64,000 nt of DNA from Clostridiales bacterium. GTDB lineage: Bacteria > Bacillota > Clostridia > Oscillospirales > QAKW01. Position numbers and translations under genes: made by a program. The notes under the pieces were generated by a model. It searched no databases. It saw nothing but the letters and a program-made list of their open reading frames with translations, and had not been told where the DNA came from. Position 1 is the first letter of the stretch; each line of letters begins with the position of its first letter. The stretch lies in assembly GCA_003343605.1 (NCBI GenBank), contig QAKW01000071.1, positions 356 through 64,355 of the forward strand. Reading direction: 5' to 3'. Below are positions 33,881-59,633 of this stretch, in pieces.

Positions 33881-35509
33881 ATGATTACAGGTAAGCAGTA
33901 TTGCGAGATGGTGATATCCGGATGCAACCATCTCAGCAATCAAAAGGCGGCGATCAATGCGCTGAATGTGTTCCCTGTTCCGGATGGCGATACCGGCACC
34001 AACATGACGCTGACCATTTCAGCGGCGGCCCGGGAATTGCAGAATATGGGGGAATGCACCATTTCAGAAGCTTCAGACCGGGCGGCCGGCGCAATGCTGA
34101 AAGGGGCGCGGGGCAATAGCGGCGTGATTTTATCCCTGCTGTTCCGCGGCATATCCAAAGGTCTGCGGGATAAAGAATATGCAAACGCCAAAGAATTTGC
34201 ACTGGCGCTCAATGAAGGGGTAAAGGCCGCGTACCGCGCGGTGATGAAGCCAACGGAGGGAACGGTTTTAACCGTTTCCCGGGTCGCCACGGAACGGCTG
34301 CTTCAATATGCGGAGGGCAATATTACCGAAGTGGATGCCCTCACTTATTTTGTGAAGGAAGCCAACGATGTTCTGGCACAGACCCCGGAGATGCTGCCCC
34401 AGCTGAAGCAGGCGGGCGTTGTAGACGCAGGCGGCAAGGGCTTTGCCGTTGTGATGGAAGGCGCGCTGGCGGCGCTGATGGGGAATCCGATCCAGCTCGT
34501 AGAGCAGCAGGAAGCTGTGAGTGATACGGTGGTAGACGAGGTGGCCCTGCGGGAAGAGGATATTAAATTTACCTATTGCACCGAATATATCGTCACGGTA
34601 GATGAAACGGCGAAAAAAAGCAATCCGGCCGATCTGCGTTCCTATCTGGAATCGATTGGGGACAGTGTGGTCTGCGTACCCGATAATGACATTATCAAGG
34701 TGCATGTGCATACCAATCATCCCGGGCGCGCCATTGAAGAGGCGCTGCGCTACGGTTCCCTTGTAAATCTGAAAATCGATAATATGAAAGAAGAATTCCG
34801 GGCCCGGCAGAAGGAGAATCCCTCCGGCCTGCAGATTGCCGATGCCGCCAAACGCTACGGCTTTGTTTCCGTGGTGGCCGGCGAAGGGCTTGCCGCGCTG
34901 TTTCGGGATCTTGGCGTGGATACGGTGGTGGAAGGCGGGCAAACCATGAATCCCTCTACTGCCGATATTCTGGCAGCCATCAATCAAACGCCGAGCGAGA
35001 TGGTATTCGTGCTGCCGAATAATAAAAACATCATTATGGCGGCGGAGCAGGCAAAAGAGCTTTCCACGGTCAAACAGGTTGTGGTGATCCCCTCGAAAAC
35101 GGTTCCCCAGGGGGTAACGGCCATGCTCGGCTTTGATGAAAGCATGGAGCCTGCTGAAATCGAAGAAACGATGACGGCCCAGCTGGCCACGGTAAAGACC
35201 GCGCAGGTCACCTATGCAGCCCGGGATTCGGTCTTTGACGATCAGGAAATCCGGGAAGGGCAGCTTTTAGGCCTTCTGGAAACAAAGGTTTCATTTGTGG
35301 AAGATCAGATGGAGGTGCTGATTGAGAAGCTTTTTGCGCGCCTTCTGGAAGAAGGAGGCACCTATATCAACATCTATTATGGAGCCGACGCTACGGAAGA
35401 GCAGGCGCAGGCGATCCGCGAACAGGTGCAGGGGATGAATCCGGAAGCAGAGGTCATCTGCCTGAACGGCGGGCAGCCGATTTATCCGTATATTTTTTCT
35501 GTAGAATAG
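33881..35509 (+). CDS. DAK2 domain fusion protein YloV
   Basis: INALNVFPVPDGDTGTNM is the Dak2 phosphate-binding motif. Length is 542 aa and it lies downstream of Asp23, as in yloU-yloV. Confidence 0.88.
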   Translation: MITGKQYCEMVISGCNHLSNQKAAINALNVFPVPDGDTGTNMTLTISAAARELQNMGECTISEASDRAAGAMLKGARGNSGVILSLLFRGISKGLRDKEYANAKEFALALNEGVKAAYRAVMKPTEGTVLTVSRVATERLLQYAEGNITEVDALTYFVKEANDVLAQTPEMLPQLKQAGVVDAGGKGFAVVMEGALAALMGNPIQLVEQQEAVSDTVVDEVALREEDIKFTYCTEYIVTVDETAKKSNPADLRSYLESIGDSVVCVPDNDIIKVHVHTNHPGRAIEEALRYGSLVNLKIDNMKEEFRARQKENPSGLQIADAAKRYGFVSVVAGEGLAALFRDLGVDTVVEGGQTMNPSTADILAAINQTPSEMVFVLPNNKNIIMAAEQAKELSTVKQVVVIPSKTVPQGVTAMLGFDESMEPAEIEETMTAQLATVKTAQVTYAARDSVFDDQEIREGQLLGLLETKVSFVEDQMEVLIEKLFARLLEEGGTYINIYYGADATEEQAQAIREQVQGMNPEAEVICLNGGQPIYPYIFSVE

Positions 35510-35560
35510 GCTTCGCCGCGCCGTTTCGCTAAAAGGCGGCGATAATCAAAGCAATGTAAC

Positions 35561-35600
35561 AAACGGACTTCGTGTTTCAAGCGAAGTCCGTTTTATTTTT
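35561..35600 (+). terminator. intrinsic terminator after yloV-like gene
   Basis: AACGGACTTCG-tgtttcaag-CGAAGTCCGTT followed by TTATTTTT. Confidence 0.8.
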
Positions 35601-35722
35601 GTGCACGCAATACAATCCCCGGCGGTGTGTTTTTTGAGTCTTCTGCTTCCGCGCCGTTGGCTATAGGCTTATTACAGCATGCACACTCCTGTAAAAAGAA
35701 GTAAATGGTATTTATCAAAATA

Positions 35723-35750
35723 TTGACAATTATTAAATATTTGCTACAAT
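35723..35750 (+). promoter_or_regulatory. promoter TTGACA-16-TACAAT with extended -10 (TGcTACAAT) upstream of the cas4 stub/cas1
   Basis: Sits in an AT-rich junction between the yloV terminator and cas sequences. Confidence 0.55.
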
Positions 35751-35786
35751 ATATTATATCGTTTTTTCCATATCTCAATCTTATTC

Positions 35787-35924
35787 ATGAGATCAGGAGC
35801 TCTTGAAAAAGCCTGTAATGCATGCTCTCTAAAAGAGCTTTGCCTCCCCGGGCTAATGCAGAAACACGCGGTTTCAGACTATATCAGGAGCTATCTGGAG
35901 GAAGCTGATGAGACATCTTCTTAA
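35787..35924 (+). pseudogene. cas4: cas4 3-prime remnant (C-terminal ~45 codons only)
   Basis: This frame is below the ORF-track cutoff: MRSGALEKACNACSLKELCLPGLMQKHAVSDYIRSYLEEADETSS. It has a CX2CX5C cysteine triad and overlaps the cas1 start by 17 nt, as Cas4 genes do. An in-frame stop at 35724 leaves no room for the ~170 missing N-terminal residues. Confidence 0.65.
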
Positions 35925-36939
35925 CACGCTGTTTGTTACCACCGAAAATGCCTATCTGTCTTTAGACGGGGAAAACATTCTGATCCATCAGGAAAAAGAA
36001 ATAATCGGGCGGTATCCGCTGCACATACTGCAGGGCATTATGTGTTTTTCCTATTCGGGCGCATCGCCGGCGTCGATGGGGGCCTGTGCAGAACGGAATA
36101 TATCGCTGAGCTTTTGCTCACCGCGCGGTAAGTTTTTAGCCAGAGCATGCGGCAAAAGCAGTGGGAATGTGCTGCTGCGCCGCATGCAATATCGGATTGC
36201 CAATGATCCACAAGATAGTTGCCTGCTTGCCCGCGGTTTTATTTTGGGAAAAGTTTATAATGGAAAGGCAAGCCTGGAACGAAGCCTGCGGGATCACCGA
36301 ATGCGGTTAGATGCAGATCTGCTGATGCAGGCTGTGGATTCCATAAAACAAATTCTGCCTCAGATTGCAGCGGAAACGTCAATGGAGGCTCTGCGCGGGA
36401 TGGAGGGAAAGGCAGCGGCCGTATACTTTGGCTGTTTGGATCAATTGATTTTGAACAATAAAGAAGCCTTTTACTTTCAGGGAAGAAACCGCAGACCGCC
36501 GCTGGATAAGGTCAATGCGCTGCTGTCTTTTGCCTACAGTCTGCTGGTCACTGAATGTGCCTCTGCTTTGGAATCTGTTGGGTTAGATTCCTACGTAGGA
36601 TTTTTGCATAGGGATCGACCCGGGCGGATCTCCCTGGCTCTGGATCTGATGGAGGAACTCAGGCCCTGCTTTGCAGATCGTTTTGTGCTCACAATGATCA
36701 ACAACCGTGTCATTTCACCAGAAGACTTTGATACGCAGGAGAGCGGTGCGGTTTTAATCAAAGATTCTGCACGTCGGACATTTTTAAAGCAATGGCAGCA
36801 AAAAAAGCAGGTAATCATTACCCATCCCTATTTAGGAGAGAAAATCCCCTGGGGTTTGGTACCCTATGTGCAGGCGCTGCTCCTGGCACGATATTTGCGG
36901 GGCGATGTGGATGCTTATCCGCCATTTTTTTGGAAATGA
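35908..36939 (+). CDS. cas1: CRISPR-associated endonuclease Cas1, subtype I-C
   Basis: LNTLFVTTENAYLSLDGENILI..., GFLHRDRPGRISLALDLMEELRP, and the C-terminus YPPFFWK typical of the I-C (Dvulg) Cas1. Confidence 0.95.
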   Translation: MRHLLNTLFVTTENAYLSLDGENILIHQEKEIIGRYPLHILQGIMCFSYSGASPASMGACAERNISLSFCSPRGKFLARACGKSSGNVLLRRMQYRIANDPQDSCLLARGFILGKVYNGKASLERSLRDHRMRLDADLLMQAVDSIKQILPQIAAETSMEALRGMEGKAAAVYFGCLDQLILNNKEAFYFQGRNRRPPLDKVNALLSFAYSLLVTECASALESVGLDSYVGFLHRDRPGRISLALDLMEELRPCFADRFVLTMINNRVISPEDFDTQESGAVLIKDSARRTFLKQWQQKKQVIITHPYLGEKIPWGLVPYVQALLLARYLRGDVDAYPPFFWK

Positions 36940-36948
36940 GGGTTTGAA

Positions 36949-37239
36949 ATGTTGGTTTTAATTACCTATGATGTAAATACAGAGGATGCCGCTGGGAAGA
37001 CGCGGCTTCGCAAAATTGCAAAGCAGTGCATTAATTATGGCCAACGAGTGCAAAACTCTGTATTTGAATGTCTGCTGGATGCAGCACAGTGCCGTATATT
37101 GCAAGCAAAGCTGGTATCTATTATGGATAAAGAGCGGGACAGTCTGCGTTTCTATTATTTGGGAAACCGGTACGATACGAAGATAGAACGCTTCGGTTCT
37201 TCTGACGCCTATGCGCCAGAAGAGGTGTTGATGATTTAA
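36949..37239 (+). CDS. cas2: CRISPR-associated endoribonuclease Cas2
   Basis: MLVLITYDVNTEDAAGKTRLRKIAKQCINYGQRVQNSVFEC...LRFYYLG. Confidence 0.95.
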   Translation: MLVLITYDVNTEDAAGKTRLRKIAKQCINYGQRVQNSVFECLLDAAQCRILQAKLVSIMDKERDSLRFYYLGNRYDTKIERFGSSDAYAPEEVLMI

Positions 37240-37410
37240 GCCGCGAAGCAGAAGTACACAGCATTTCTCTGAGCGGTTCGCGCATAAAAATTCTTATATG
37301 GCTTTTCTAAACAAGATTCATTATAGTAGAATTGCCATTGATTATTAAAAAATTTGTGCAAACAAGATAGAAATGAATTCTTTATGGATTTAAATTTGTT
37401 TTTGTTTGCT

Positions 37411-37844
37411 GTCGCACCCCGCAAGGGGTGCGTGGATTGAAATATACTGTACTTAACGCTTCCGGGGCCTTTTGCCGGTCGCACCCCGCAAGGGGTGCGT
37501 GGATTGAAATTGTGGTAGCTGCTCCGTTGAAAGCAAAGTTACCGGGTCGCACCCCGCAAGGGGTGCGTGGATTGAAATGTGAATTATCTTTTCCTTGCTC
37601 CAATATTTGCACGTCGCACCCCGCAAGGGGTGCGTGGATTGAAATTGTTACTTTAAAGTGGTTGCCCTTGTTTTTGTCGGTCGCACCCCGCAAGGGGTGC
37701 GTGGATTGAAATTTTACGGCTTTGTTGTCGAAAAATTGTCTGTACGTCGCACCCCGCAAGGGGTGCGTGGATTGAAATTGCACCTGCACCAAACGCCCCG
37801 CCCAGCGGCCTGTCGCACCCCGCAAGGGGTGCGTGGACTTAAAT
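37411..37844 (+). CRISPR. CRISPR array, 7 repeats and 6 spacers, type I-C repeat
   Basis: The repeat GTCGCACCCCGCAAGGGGTGCGTGGATTGAAAT (33 nt) starts at 37411, 37478, 37546, 37613, 37680, 37746 and 37812. Spacers are 33-35 nt and all different. The last repeat is degenerate (..GGACTTAAAT). An AT-rich leader (37240-37410) sits on the cas2 side. Confidence 0.97.
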
Positions 37845-38011
37845 TTCTTAGAGCACAAATATGAAAAAGAAAATGAACCGTAAGTGATCCCCCGGACAGC
37901 ATGATGTCCCAACGATTTTTAACGGTTCATTTTCTTCTAAAGGTGATATATCACCGAATAATCAGAGCGGGACTGCCCGCGTACTGCTTGTGGAACCGCC
38001 CGGCCGCCCTT

Positions 38012-38653
38012 TCAAAGCAGCTTCAAAAACGCGAGAAGTATTAGCAGCGCGCCGCCGATCCAGGTGCAATTAAACGATGCTTTCCGGGCAGCTCTGTTGC
38101 CCAAAAGGGCGCCGCCCATGACTGCCAGCATATTGGTAGCCAGCGAACATAAAATAACCGCCCAGGCGTTTACCTCTCCGAGGGCGGCGCCGAAGCCGAC
38201 GGCCAGACCATCCAGCGAGAGCGCTGCGGCCAGCGAAAGCGCTTCGCCCGGCGAAATGGTTTTGGAGCAATCCTGATCCGCCATTTCCGGATCGGCATAC
38301 AACCGCAGCACAAACCGGAAATTAAACATATGAAAGCGGATTTCGCGGCTCAGCCGGTTATATTTGCGGATCAGCGCTTTTGTGAAACTATCGAGCAGTT
38401 TGATCAGGCCCAAAACAAACAGCAGGAGAAAGCAGATCAACGTGGTGAGCCACTCCGGAATGAGAGGGCGGATCAGCGCGCCTGCCAGGAGAGAAACGCC
38501 CATCACAGTGCTGCAGACCAGGTTGATCACCTGCACGGATAAAAACGGAATATGGATTTGATTGCTGCCGTATGCAAAGCTTGCCACAAAAGCATCCAGC
38601 GAAAGGGCCGCGGCCAGCGCCGCAGCTTCTAAAATCATCAGAACGGTTTCCAA
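38012..38653 (-). CDS. MntP/DUF204 family membrane protein, YtaF-like (sporulation membrane protein)
   Basis: AAALSLDAFVASFAYG and a second AAALSLDGLAVGFGA repeat give the duplicated DUF204 halves. TTG 38653 lies 9 nt after GGAGG; the alternative start is ATG 38638. Confidence 0.65.
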   Translation of the reverse strand: METVLMILEAAALAAALSLDAFVASFAYGSNQIHIPFLSVQVINLVCSTVMGVSLLAGALIRPLIPEWLTTLICFLLLFVLGLIKLLDSFTKALIRKYNRLSREIRFHMFNFRFVLRLYADPEMADQDCSKTISPGEALSLAAALSLDGLAVGFGAALGEVNAWAVILCSLATNMLAVMGGALLGNRAARKASFNCTWIGGALLILLAFLKLL

Positions 38654-39071
38654 GCTTCTTTTCCTCCCGCGGTTTCCGCAAATTGATGCAGACGATACCA
38701 TCAGGCCGCAATGCAGGATGATGGAAATGTCTTAATTTATGCTATGGCGGCGCGGCGCGGAGGTTCCAAACGCAGAGTTCTGTAGATATTTATGAATGAA
38801 GACGGTATGGTTTACCATACCGTCTTCACTATTTAAGCCGCCGGGGTAAAGAGGAAATCCGGGCTGCCCTCACGCAGCCGGCCCTGCGCGCCGGATCTTT
38901 ATAAAGCCACATCGGGAAGAAAAACACTGTGATACCGCCAGAGCGGCGCGCGGCGCCGTGATTTTGCATCGATTCGTTTGCCGCGTCTCCAACCGCCTGC
39001 CCTTTGCCGGGCAGGCTTGCTTTATTCTATGCCGGGGCTGGACAAACGTTCCTCCAAAGATCCAGTTATTC

Positions 39072-55780: not shown

Positions 55781-55927
55781 TTGGAAAATAAAAATATGGA
55801 TATGCAGGCCATTTTCAGCGCACTTTCAGAGCAAAACAAAGACGTAGTGCTTCTGATCGCCAAAAGTGTAAAAATTGCCCAGGAAGTTTCCGAGCAGCCG
55901 CGCAGGCCCCCGAAGCAAACCGGCTGA
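55781..55927 (+). CDS. hypothetical 48-aa protein (below the ORF-track cutoff)
   Basis: RBS AAAGGAGG lies 8 nt before TTG. Translation is MENKNMDMQAIFSALSEQNKDVVLLIAKSVKIAQEVSEQPRRPPKQTG. No recognisable family. Confidence 0.35.
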   Translation: MENKNMDMQAIFSALSEQNKDVVLLIAKSVKIAQEVSEQPRRPPKQTG

Positions 55928-56000
55928 CGCTGTAAAAAAATATTTTCTATTGTATTTTCTTGTTATTATGCTAAAATATAATTCAAAGAGGGTGATCAAT

Positions 56001-59000
56001 TTGAATAAAATAACAAGTAAAGCCTGTATATTAACCATGATTTTAACGCTTTTTTCCACATTTATACTGCCTTCACACGCGGCGCCGGCGGCTGAATACG
56101 AGAACCGCTATGATATTTCAACTGCGCGCAACTGCTATGTGAGGGAGGATGGCACGGAAGTATCGAGCGCAAATTTCTTTACTTCGGATTATATCCCGGT
56201 TTCACCCGGAGAAACGCTTTATCTGGGGCCGTGCGATCCCGCGCAGGGCTATCAGTTCGCCGTTTTTGACGCGGCGAAAAACGGCCTGGGCCTGATGAAG
56301 AGCGCCGATTGCGAAACAGTTGCCGGCCTATCCGGCGGCGGCGCAATCCTTTCCTATGTGGTTCCGGAACAGGCGGCTTATATCCGGATGTCGGCCGCCG
56401 TGGTTTATGCCCGCTGGTTTCTGCTTACCCGGGATCAGCCGTTTGATGAAGAGAGCCTGCTGCGGGCGGTTACCGCCGGAGGCGCGGCGATCGCAAGCAA
56501 TCTTTACGATAAAACAACAGCCGATTACGGATATCGGAATGCCGATCATTCGGTTACGTCCTCTGCCAGCCACTGGTCTTCCAAAGAGTTTGCCGTTGCG
56601 GCCAACGACACGATTTTTTTCGGCCCCTGCAATGAAAACCAGAACTTTCAGTTATACGCCTGGAATACGGCCGGTACGGCGAGCAAGGTTAACGCCTCCG
56701 GCCTGAAGATCGTGGACCGGTTTGATAACGGTCAGGTCATTTATGCCTATCGCTGCCTTAGCGACGGCACTGTTTCGCTGGTTAATGCCTCGGCTTATAA
56801 CGATTACTACCTGGCAACGAAGAACCAACCGCTGACGGTTCAATTATATTATAACTATTGGGATAGCCGGGAAAACGCCAACTGCTATTTCCCTACTCTG
56901 GATAAGACCGGCGCCTATCTGAACAACGACGGCAGTTATACCGATTATGCGAACCATAGCTGCTCCCACTATATTGCCGTGCAGGAAGGCGATACCCTGA
57001 CCTTCGGGCCCGCGGTTGCCGGCCAGGGCTACCATGCCATGGGCTTCGACGCCGAAAAAACGGCTGTCACCGGCAAGGTGACCGCTTCCGCCCTGGAGAG
57101 TACCGATACATTCAGCGACGGAAGAATGCTTTATACCTATACGGTTCCCGCCGGAATTTCCTATGTAAGGGTCGTTAACAGCACTTCTTACAAAAGCAGC
57201 TTTGTAATCTTCAAAAACAATCCGATTACGGTGGAAGATTATAATAATTATATGGGAATCCAGGTGGATCCCTCCTCTCCCCTTTACCGGAAAACAGCCC
57301 TCTTCGTAGGTGATTCGATCTGCTACGGATCCCAGGATGATGCCAGCAACCGCCTGGCGTGGGCGGGCAGAATTGCGCAGCGCTATGGGATGTCCCGCAC
57401 CAACAACGCTGCTGTCAGCGGTACATCGCTTTCTACTGCCAGAGCAGAGCGGCAGGGCAAGATTGTATTGCAGCTGGCCCAATACAGCGGATGGCATTAC
57501 GACTACGTGATTCTGCACGGCGGCGTAAACGATGCATGGGATTCCTTCCCCGTTGGGGAGGTGAGCGATTCCTTTGATCCGGCGGATTTTGATCTGAGCA
57601 CCTATGCCGGCGGCCTGGAGGAGCTGATCTATACCGCGGTGAAATACTATGGAAAAACCGCCGCCATCGGCTATCTGATGAATTTTAAGGCGCCCGGCTG
57701 CTCCACCGGCAATATCAGCGATATGAGCGCATACTTTGCGGTCGGCAAGCAGATCTGTGAAAAATGGGGAATCGCCTATTACGATATGTATAACAGTGAG
57801 GAGATCTCTGAAGCGCTGAAGGTCACCACCAACACCTATCTGCCCGATTACATCCATCTGAATGCTGCCGGCTACGATATTATTGCGCCCTACATCGGCG
57901 CATGGATGGAGACGCTTGAGCCCTACGATTCCTCTGTTGAAGAGCATGAAAAAACAGTGATCGCCTGCGTGGGTGATTCCATTACAAAAGGCGAGATGAG
58001 CAACGATGTTAACCGCTTCAGCTATCCGGCTCAGCTGCAGGATCTGATCGGTGATGATTATGAAGTGCTGAACCTGGGTTGGGGCGGGGCGACCGCTCAG
58101 ACCGGCACCGGCAATCCCTTCAAGGGCACCTATCAGTATAAGCAGAGCCTGGAGGCGGATCCGGATATTGTGGTGATGATGTTTGGCCATAACGATACAA
58201 AGGCGGCCAACTGGGATACCAGCAATCATGAGGCTTCTAAAGCGAAGTTTAAGGCACATCTGACAGAACTGGTGCAGGAATATCAGAATATGCCTTCTCA
58301 GCCTACGGTTTATATTGCAACGCCTGCTTGGGCGCAAGGTCCGCTTTCTGTTTTCAATAACGGCATGCTGGACGCGATCCGGGAAGTGGCGCAAGAGCAA
58401 AACTGCACGCTGATTGATGTGCATGCCGCCACCTTTGAGCGCAGCGACTTGCTTGCCTCCGATGCCGTGCACTTTACCGATGAGGGCTATGCGTTGATTG
58501 CCGAAACCGTTCGGGAAGGTCTGGGACTTAACAAAGCAGAGAAAAAGGAAGTAGAGATTCCCGATAATGTAAATCCCGAACGGCCGGTTATGCGCGCCTA
58601 TTCCCAATATCCCGAAGCCGGCGCCTATGCGCTGGAAACGGTGGAGGATGTAGAGATCTTCGGTGATCTGATTGCCTCCGGCGTCACCTTTAAGAACAAA
58701 ACCGTCTATTTAATGAATGATCTGGATTTCAGCGGCAAGAACTTCAGACCGCTGGGCTCCAGCACCGGTGTGACGGCCGCCAACCGGATCCTTTATGATC
58801 ATGCCTTTCAGGGAACCTTTAACGGGAATGGGCACACGTTCTCCAATGTTTATATCTCTTCCATGTGGTGGGATACTGCGCTTTTCCCTGTCACCTACGG
58901 CGCTGTGATTCAGAATTTCGGCCTGGCCAGCGGCAGAATTGAGGGGCTGGACATTACCGCCTCCATTGTGGGCTACGGCGATGGCGGCACCGTGCTTGAA

Positions 59001-59633
59001 AACGTCTGGTCCGCTGCGGATGTCTACAGTGCGCGCACAGCTGACGGCGCGGCCGGGATCGCCGCCAATATGCGGAACGGGGGAACCATGACCAATGTAG
59101 CCTATTACGGAACGGTCAGCGGCAATATGAATATTGCGGGTTTGTGCTCCTGGGGGCAGAGCGGCAATACCGCCCTGGTGATGCGCAACTGTGTGTTTGC
59201 CGGGAGGCTGGATTTGCTCAACGTAAAATCCACCAACTATCGCTCCTATACCTTCGGCCGCTACGGCGCCACGGTTTCCGTAAATGAGAATCTTTTTGGC
59301 GTCATCGGCCGGGAGGGCACCACCAGTGTGGATACGGCCGTTCCCGTGCTGCTCGATGAAACGGCCTATTCCGATGGCACTGCCGCCGCCCTGCTGAATG
59401 CCTGTGAAGGCGCGCGGTGGGTGGTGCGCGAAGGGCGAACGGTACCGGGCGCCGGCATCCTCCGCGGCGATGCAGACGGCGACGGCCTGGTATCCACGGC
59501 AGACGCGGTCCGGCTGATGCGGTATCTCAACGGGCATACGGTAGAGCTCAACGCCGCCAATGCCGATTTCAACGGCGATGGAAGACTTTCTATTGCCGAT
59601 GCAGTTGCGATTCTGCGGCAGCTCGCCGCATAA
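56001..59633 (+). CDS. secreted multidomain protein: 3 unassigned ~125-aa repeats, 2 SGNH/GDSL esterase domains, a beta-helix-like region and a type I dockerin
   Basis: TTG 56001 lies 7 nt after AAAGAGGGTG. Signal peptide is ...FILPSHA/APAAEY. SGNH blocks are FVGDSICYG/GGVNDAWD/DYIHLN and CVGDSITKG/MFGHNDTK/DAVHFTDEGY. The dockerin is DADGDGLVSTADAVRLMRYL...DFNGDGRLSIADAVAILRQL. Confidence 0.85.
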   Translation: MNKITSKACILTMILTLFSTFILPSHAAPAAEYENRYDISTARNCYVREDGTEVSSANFFTSDYIPVSPGETLYLGPCDPAQGYQFAVFDAAKNGLGLMKSADCETVAGLSGGGAILSYVVPEQAAYIRMSAAVVYARWFLLTRDQPFDEESLLRAVTAGGAAIASNLYDKTTADYGYRNADHSVTSSASHWSSKEFAVAANDTIFFGPCNENQNFQLYAWNTAGTASKVNASGLKIVDRFDNGQVIYAYRCLSDGTVSLVNASAYNDYYLATKNQPLTVQLYYNYWDSRENANCYFPTLDKTGAYLNNDGSYTDYANHSCSHYIAVQEGDTLTFGPAVAGQGYHAMGFDAEKTAVTGKVTASALESTDTFSDGRMLYTYTVPAGISYVRVVNSTSYKSSFVIFKNNPITVEDYNNYMGIQVDPSSPLYRKTALFVGDSICYGSQDDASNRLAWAGRIAQRYGMSRTNNAAVSGTSLSTARAERQGKIVLQLAQYSGWHYDYVILHGGVNDAWDSFPVGEVSDSFDPADFDLSTYAGGLEELIYTAVKYYGKTAAIGYLMNFKAPGCSTGNISDMSAYFAVGKQICEKWGIAYYDMYNSEEISEALKVTTNTYLPDYIHLNAAGYDIIAPYIGAWMETLEPYDSSVEEHEKTVIACVGDSITKGEMSNDVNRFSYPAQLQDLIGDDYEVLNLGWGGATAQTGTGNPFKGTYQYKQSLEADPDIVVMMFGHNDTKAANWDTSNHEASKAKFKAHLTELVQEYQNMPSQPTVYIATPAWAQGPLSVFNNGMLDAIREVAQEQNCTLIDVHAATFERSDLLASDAVHFTDEGYALIAETVREGLGLNKAEKKEVEIPDNVNPERPVMRAYSQYPEAGAYALETVEDVEIFGDLIASGVTFKNKTVYLMNDLDFSGKNFRPLGSSTGVTAANRILYDHAFQGTFNGNGHTFSNVYISSMWWDTALFPVTYGAVIQNFGLASGRIEGLDITASIVGYGDGGTVLENVWSAADVYSARTADGAAGIAANMRNGGTMTNVAYYGTVSGNMNIAGLCSWGQSGNTALVMRNCVFAGRLDLLNVKSTNYRSYTFGRYGATVSVNENLFGVIGREGTTSVDTAVPVLLDETAYSDGTAAALLNACEGARWVVREGRTVPGAGILRGDADGDGLVSTADAVRLMRYLNGHTVELNAANADFNGDGRLSIADAVAILRQLAA

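Follow-up and report, generated by a model that had tools for sequence, protein, structure and literature searches.

Partial CRISPR-Cas loci are common and are usually dismissed as dead. Some apparently incomplete CRISPR systems are functional (PMC8616872). In type I-C systems, prespacer processing that is specific for the protospacer-adjacent motif (PAM) requires Cas4 together with Cas1-Cas2, and some integration by Cas1-Cas2 remains in vitro without Cas4 (PMC6519985). The PAMs of native I-C acquisition are TTC, the canonical motif, and TTT, the second (PMC5602111). Here we describe a reduced type I-C locus in a human-gut metagenome-assembled genome (MAG) of a Clostridiales bacterium. It lies within a stretch of 64,000 nucleotides (nt) of contig QAKW01000071.1, referred to here as the window, and comprises the tail of cas4, cas1, cas2, a leader, and a short array. 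We favor, with moderate confidence, the reading that this is a degenerate second I-C locus whose array a complete I-C system at another genomic site would service in trans.

When compared to canonical type I-C (Dvulg) systems, such as the complete loci L012, L013, L019, L029, and L039, the window locus has the same Cas1c signature, Cas2, and 17-nt cas4/cas1 overlap, the same 33-nt repeat with an 8-bp hairpin and an 11-nt handle, spacers of 33-35 nt, and TTC/TTT PAMs; the repeat is identical in many complete loci. It differs in that cas3, cas5c, cas8c, cas7, and approximately the first 186 codons of cas4 are missing, the array is short, and the constraint on cas1 appears relaxed. The cas1 gene (35908-36939, plus strand) encodes 343 amino acids ending in ...DAYPPFFWK, its reading frame is intact in the window strain, and its product falls within the I-C clade, scoring 471.5 bits against TIGR03640 (type I-C Cas1c; cut-off 385) and also matching PF01867. 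Directly downstream, cas2 (36949-37239, plus strand) matches TIGR01573 (63.5 bits) and PF09827, and its product is 79% identical to Cas2 from a complete I-C locus. Cas2 adjoins Cas1 and is followed by the leader and the repeat-spacer array. We searched the window by tblastn with a complete I-C set (all seven proteins) and found no cas3, cas5c, cas8c, or cas7 in the 64 kb; matches were limited to the cas4 tail, cas1, and cas2, and the remaining large open reading frames are housekeeping genes. Over 35400-37400 the G+C content is 0.40-0.52, compared to 0.51-0.65 in the flanks. The first-pass annotation of this DNA had described an intact I-C cas1 ending in YPPFFWK with an intact cas2, no effector genes upstream of cas1, and a locus more AT-rich than its flanks, and all of this held.

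An AT-rich leader of 171 nt (37240-37410, plus strand) leads into the array. It is of equal length in all strains of the species, with 5-7 single-nucleotide polymorphisms (SNPs) between strain types, and contains no strong plus-strand promoter match. The array (37411-37844, plus strand) consists, as had been annotated, of seven repeats of 33 nt, GTCGCACCCCGCAAGGGGTGCGTGGATTGAAAT, and six spacers within the 33-35 nt range (34, 35, 34, 34, 33, and 33 nt), ending in a degenerate repeat. Two mismatches set the last repeat apart from the other six, which are exact; none of 100 shuffles gave a match. Folding gives the repeat an 8-bp stem capped by a GCAA loop and leaves an 11-nt tail at the 3' end (-17.4 kcal/mol, z -3.7). 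A hairpin with an 11-nt tail is the form of a Cas5c substrate, and the 5' handle of the CRISPR RNA (crRNA) of 11 nt would be UGGAUUGAAAU. The same repeat adjoins complete I-C operons in other genomes. The last repeat together with the next bases (window 37812-37860; L042, L045, and L049) is more variable between strains than any flanking DNA, and the array ends in the forms GGACTTAAAT+TTCTTAGAG, GGCCTTAAAT+GGCTTAGAG, or a strongly mutated GGCGCACTCCGCAGGGGTACGTGGACTTAAAC+GTCAGAG. A minus-strand open reading frame of 176 amino acids spans the array (37382-37912), and frames of this kind are called as proteins in several contigs (e.g., 167 amino acids in L008; 221 in L049 and L071); they are spurious translated repeats.

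Immediately upstream of cas1 lies a 45-codon frame (35787-35924, plus strand) that overlaps cas1 by 17 nt and keeps a C-X2-C-X5-C motif. It had been annotated as a Cas4 tail, with alignment to Cas4 profiles as the proposed check. That check divided: the Pfam (including PF01930) and NCBIfam profiles did not detect the stub (best E 0.075, for the Cas4 part of a Cas4-Cas1 fusion model), whereas direct comparison with full Cas4 proteins did. By BLASTP, stub residues 8-43 (35808-35915, the same interval as by tblastn) correspond to the Cas4 C-terminal tail, with 26 of 36 residues identical to L012 Cas4 (E 5e-17; residues 187-222 of 224) and 19 of 33 identical to L011 Cas4 (E 3e-12). On these alignments, the stub is a true Cas4 C-terminus. 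The first 186 residues of Cas4, which hold the entire nuclease domain, are missing and the last 38 are left, so that the locus contains no full-length Cas4 with a RecB-like nuclease and a four-cysteine iron-sulfur (Fe-S) cluster. The cas1 Shine-Dalgarno sequence (GGAGG, 35897-35901) sits inside the stub, which can explain why the deletion that survived ended within the cas4 tail.

Homology to cas4 at the DNA level starts abruptly at 35806-35808, with none upstream, in independent comparisons with four complete loci. The nearest Cas1 outside the species (74% identical) is encoded in L012, a complete cas3-cas5-cas8c-cas7-cas4-cas1-cas2-array locus that shares the 17-nt cas4/cas1 overlap. In all 11 related I-C loci that contain cas1 with upstream DNA, a full cas4 and effector genes precede cas1, and the order is cas7-cas4-cas1-cas2-array, in line with the I-C order from which the first-pass annotation had argued. 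Its proposal that a deletion or replacement took cas3 through the 5' part of cas4 is supported by this sharp start of homology and by an identical junction in conspecific strains, described below. Three "long Cas1" proteins (P0002, P0003, and P0039; 429-531 amino acids; e.g., L011 3503-5032) were considered as Cas4-Cas1 fusions and rejected, as they contain internally duplicated segments and are metagenome misassemblies. P0128 (441 amino acids), an apparent Cas1-Cas2 fusion allele of the window species, is known from a protein entry.

Between the terminator of the upstream gene yloV and the start of cas4 homology lies an AT-rich segment of 213 bp (35594-35806, plus strand; G+C approximately 0.40), somewhere within which the left end of the deletion or replacement is located. 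All strains keep the segment, with 1-3% SNPs. We found no homologue of it in any compared I-C locus (L012 being the only one with DNA upstream of cas3), nor in phage loci or elsewhere in the window. It contains a sigma-70-type promoter-like site (35723-35750, plus strand; TTGACA-16-TG-n-TACAAT) that matches 11 of 12 hexamer positions and carries the extended -10 TG. The site is predicted from its sequence and position to drive the stub, cas1, and cas2, and possibly the array. Both hexamers are invariant in all strains, and the cas1 ribosome-binding site is also kept. The segment could equally be the old operon promoter region rather than DNA brought in by the deletion. The yloV gene itself (DAK2/FakA-like; TIGR03599, 593.9 bits) ends in an intrinsic-terminator-like hairpin (35561-35593, plus strand; 13-pair stem, then a T-run, TATTTTTGTG), so the terminator followed by a near-consensus promoter is present as annotated.

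We identified conspecific strains by exact-protein look-ups with the Cas1 and Cas2 alleles, which returned several dozen contigs from independent gut metagenomes. The gene order yloV, cas1, cas2, array, ytaF was found in all of them. The junction was checked in 33 loci, some of which repeat one contig (at least 29 distinct contigs), and every checked contig that reaches upstream contains the same AT-rich segment and stub junction with 0-3% SNPs. Since the junction is identical in all strains, our data point to a single ancestral deletion or replacement, and by this comparison one such event in the ancestor of all sampled strains is shown to have made the locus. Differences from the window allele amount to 0.7-1.7% in cas1, 0.8-2.8% in the upstream segment, and 0.3-1% in yloV. 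Because diversity by the junction is not below that of the flanks, a recent sweep of the deletion allele is not indicated. The strains are at least 99% identical in the flanks, and the flanking genes have synonymous divergence (dS) of 0.01-0.04.

No strain with an undeleted locus was found, and the protein collection contains no Cas1 at 74-98% identity to that of the window. The syntenic comparison that had been proposed thus succeeded in part: the cas4-side junction is shared by conspecifics, and no CRISPR locus follows yloV in the two nearest species (YloV 83% and 79% identical), which hence show no pre-deletion state. The first-pass annotation had also allowed for a cas1-cas2-only layout being an ancestral, conserved architecture. 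The species as a whole keeps this layout, yet never without the cas4 stub, and the layout is therefore derived. A scan of Joint Genome Institute (JGI) metagenomes with a 46-mer of the leader gave only one match, to an already-known contig. The 3' end of yloV (window from 35510 onward, compared with L140 from 10728 onward) is a rearrangement point. In the nearest species (YloV 83%) the upstream gene order is identical and a block of Fe-ADH, hydrolase, and RadC genes adjoins yloV, inverted; in the window this block lies approximately 8-11 kb away on the other strand.

Array content is far from uniform among these strains. We found nine array types and 38 distinct spacers (1-10 spacers per array), and the sole overlap between types is one trailer spacer. 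In addition to the window type, the types are S7-S8-S23; S29 to S33 then S23; S17 to S22; S28; (S9)-S10-S11-S12-S25-S26-S27-S14-S15-S16; S34-S35; S36(-S37); and S38 to S40. L042 and L072 have S23 as a common trailer spacer and end in an identical, strongly degenerate repeat, and all of their leader-side spacers differ. S9 at the leader end is present in L064, L045, L047, and L048 and absent from L062 and L068, whose arrays are otherwise identical. Both patterns have the polarity expected for acquisition. Spacers are also lost: L051 is without S20 and S22, L046 contains only S16, L050 and L077 contain only S22, and L074 likewise shows loss. Strains have clearly recombined inside the locus: L072 combines L045-like cas1 SNPs with the trailer spacer and last repeat of the L042 type, and L076 and L077 have identical cas1-cas2 DNA and unrelated arrays.

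The repeats bear on the age of these arrays. Across 39 non-terminal repeats (1287 nt) we found one substitution, compared to 0.8-4% divergence between strains in neighboring non-coding DNA; unconstrained repeats of the same age as the strains should have accumulated 4-13 substitutions (Poisson P 0.1 to 4e-5). Repeats this close to perfect are therefore either young, having been copied at each integration, or selected. A relic would have repeats that decay neutrally and the same array in every strain save for losses, and we found near-perfect repeats and near-identical strains without common spacers. This comparison of strains suggests that at the species level the array is not a frozen relic and is still being renewed. 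The evidence for renewal is indirect, as deletion and recombination can mimic part of the pattern. The first-pass annotation had left three outcomes for the array (a relic, service in trans by an effector elsewhere, or retention of Cas1-Cas2 for another role); nine types, 38 spacers, and near-perfect repeats argue against the frozen relic, and the strain comparison favors service in trans.

The proposed search of phage and plasmid databases found spacer targets in one gut phage family. In IMG/VR, a degenerate pattern over S4 and its relative S10 retrieved seven contigs, and further phage contigs related to these came from a protein-based scan. Perfect matches occur for S2 in six IMG/VR contigs and for S10 in five; the number of mismatches is one for S6, two for S21, and three for S4, and shuffled spacers gave no matches. 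Window spacers 2, 4, and 6 thus target one phage contig family, with protospacers within approximately 2 kb in the phage DNA methyltransferase and DNA polymerase genes. Related phages vary at 1-7 positions in the S2 and S10 protospacers. Read 5' of the protospacer on the spacer-identical strand (crRNA sense), the PAM is TTC for S2, S4/S10, and S21, and TTT for S6, so that 4 of 4 mapped protospacers have an I-C PAM in the right orientation. These PAMs indicate that the spacers were chosen either by Cas4-containing machinery or through interference-based selection, and the locus supplies neither. INPHARED phages gave no spacer match (the targeted family is absent from the INPHARED GenBank set), PLSDB plasmids gave chance-level matches only (E 0.7), and exact 22-24-mers of S1, S5, S9, S17, S22, and S36 had no match in IMG/VR. 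No spacer matched the I-C cas genes of relatives.

The targeted phages are represented by L057 7099-13342 (IMG/VR uncultivated viral genome [UViG] 3300029310_000047) and the related contigs L052-L058 and L079-L086; the targeted region is a replication/modification module with two DNA methyltransferases and one DNA polymerase. S3-S4 (window 37579-37679) and S9-S10 (L045 7537-7637) are diverged versions of the same two protospacers in the same order. Four of 34 positions differ between S4 and S10, and these coincide with sites polymorphic among the phages; S3 and S9 share 14 of the last 19 nt. These pairs could stem from acquisition hotspots that were sampled repeatedly or from an old shared segment. 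The matches provide a host link between an uncultured human-gut Clostridia species and one gut phage family.

The state of cas1 differs from that of the array. Ratios of nonsynonymous to synonymous divergence (dN/dS) of cas1 against the window allele are 0.43, 0.22, and 0.51, based on only 5-9 amino-acid differences, compared to 0-0.33 in ten flanking genes. The window allele alone contains A50S, L56S, D99N, and R192G; at the positions of L56 and D99, where the window has S and N, conservation across 40 homologues is at least 90%. The columns invariant in these homologues are kept, including E166, H234, D246, and E249. Two independent nonsense alleles were found, C709T (CGA to TGA, codon 237) on four contigs and C571T (CAG to TAG, codon 191) on two, and a +A frameshift in an A-run at nt 892 is listed on two contigs. 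The three cas1-null lineages carry their own unique spacers, and additional contigs are too short to reach the arrays. In the window and in most strains cas1 is intact. Overall, the alleles suggest that the local cas1 is under relaxed constraint, drifting or dispensable.

Taken together, these observations can be placed in the following sequence. The ancestral deletion or replacement removed cas3, cas5, cas8c, cas7, and approximately the first 186 codons of cas4. Behind a strong promoter-like site it left the last 38 cas4 codons, in which the ribosome-binding site of cas1 lies, followed by cas1, cas2, the leader, and the array. As the strain comparison suggests, the array would have continued to turn over after the deletion, gaining PAM-correct, oriented spacers at the leader end and losing others through recombination between repeats. 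Elsewhere in the genome, a complete type I-C system that uses the same repeat would supply PAM selection, crRNA processing, interference, and perhaps integration, and the locus today would be a secondary array with a decaying adaptation module. Supply in trans seems the most likely arrangement because the locus is without the Cas4 nuclease domain, Cas5c, and Cascade/Cas3, and because the local cas1 drifts and several lineages carry knockouts of it. There is precedent for such an arrangement: five genomes with the same repeat contain two arrays each and one cas operon visible in the DNA compared.

Several results weigh against service in trans. Within the 64 kb of the genome covered by the window we found no effector or cas4 gene that could act in trans. 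A GTDB scan with the exact 32-nt repeat returned 29 stretches of many Clostridia genomes and none of the window species; the species representative therefore shows neither the window array nor a second such array, though arrays often break assemblies. None of ten named Cas1 relatives comes from the same MAG by accession (PWM38881.1 is in that MAG). The window Cas1 allele carries the same six spacers in all 8 loci examined (6 distinct contigs), and each difference within an array type can also be explained by deletion alone (S16-only, S22-only, and L051). As alleles have visibly recombined between strains, array diversity could partly predate the deletion or have been shuffled rather than newly acquired. 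Finally, protospacers were mapped for only 4 of the 38 spacers.

The main rival, which we regard as a real but rather unlikely explanation, is a decaying relic with recombination. Such a locus would have had no function since the loss of its effectors, its spacers would predate that loss, and their diversity would come from differential retention of a large polymorphic array together with recombination. The raised cas1 dN/dS and three independent null alleles are consistent with decay, as are arrays of 1-10 spacers compared to up to 114 repeats in related complete loci, the losses directly visible in L051, L046, L050, and L074, recombination between strains within the locus, and the unchanging window-type array. 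PAM-correct spacers would also be expected had they been acquired while Cas4 was present. However, the presence of the junction in all strains with normal diversity makes the deletion at least as old as the strain radiation, and loss alone from a single ancestral array should leave common trailer spacers, whereas nearly every type has its own. Moreover, a single repeat substitution was seen against the 4-13 expected, and S2 and S10 match present-day phage contigs perfectly although related phages differ at 1-7 positions in these protospacers.

We consider it improbable that the arrays diversified through exchange alone, with blocks of spacers imported from other strains or Oscillospiraceae by homologous recombination through identical repeats and no local integration. 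The exact 32-nt repeat does occur in the 29 stretches noted above, recombination of alleles between strains is visible, and isolated arrays are reported to have been acquired horizontally in Pseudomonas (PMC13142298). In contrast, the 29 stretches from other species that carry the repeat hold none of the 38 spacers, either among their 575 spacers or in their cas regions, the phage family matched by the window species is targeted by none of these 575, and single-spacer differences at the leader end are more simply explained as acquisitions.

We give scant credence to an autonomous, memory-only module, in which Cas1-Cas2 alone, driven by the new promoter, would integrate spacers in a cell with no Cas4, no I-C effector, and no cognate interference. 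Such a module would fit the intact cas1 and cas2 of most strains with their invariant catalytic columns, the promoter-like site and cas1 ribosome-binding site preserved in all strains, the lack of an effector gene in the 64 kb, and the integration that Cas1-Cas2 partly retains in vitro without Cas4 (PMC6519985). Yet I-C PAMs at all four mapped protospacers would be unexpected without Cas4 or interference selection (PMC6519985), cas1 null alleles persist in several lineages, and pristine repeats with phage-matching spacers imply selection for use. Also improbable, in our view, is that the species has no I-C effector or Cas4 and that Cas1-Cas2, possibly with the 45-residue tail and its Fe-S cysteines, acquires PAM-correct phage spacers that serve some non-cognate system or a role outside classical interference.

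Other features of the window are given here for completeness. Rfam has no match in 35000-38500. Downstream of the array, on the minus strand, a YtaF-like gene (38012-38701) is annotated with 229 amino acids in the window MAG, and other assemblies with an identical sequence give 213 or 208; the start of the longer form probably extends too far. A protein of 1252 amino acids encoded at 55875-59633 contains two GDSL lipase/esterase domains and, at its C-terminus, a type I dockerin, a domain content that suggests a cellulosome-type surface assembly in the organism.

With a breakpoint mapped almost to the base and shared by dozens of strains, the locus offers a clean natural experiment on the fate of an array and of cas1-cas2 after loss of the interference genes, and the data suggest that decay of the neighboring adaptation genes goes along with continued use of the array. 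Should a partner I-C system be confirmed, the locus would show that switching to a paralogous cas operon allows an array to persist after the loss of its own. If there is no partner system, PAM-correct and fast-changing spacers would be hard to explain under current models of Cas4-dependent adaptation.

The locus belongs with a known class, that of partial or degenerated CRISPR-Cas loci and secondary arrays (PMC8616872), and is not a new kind of system. Of the parts that define an autonomous I-C system, it is without two, a full Cas4 and the effector genes, and retains those of adaptation and of the array. Like secondary or orphan arrays used in trans, the window array has no adjacent effectors and looks maintained; unlike them, it keeps its own cas1-cas2 and a cas4 remnant, so that its origin from a full locus is visible. 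Degenerated loci such as the I-F orphan arrays of Escherichia coli have likewise lost their effectors, kept a small array, and become fixed in a lineage (PMC8616872). Those arrays contain spacers against the lost cas genes, whereas the window species has none against the I-C cas genes of relatives, and its spacers differ greatly between near-identical strains and match phages. Leptospira interrogans is reported also to keep an incomplete subtype I-C locus (PMC9510766), with the opposite part missing, as cas genes are present without an array. What the window locus adds to this class is a base-level breakpoint together with evidence, from a population of strains, that arrays may persist beyond the cas operon to which they belonged.

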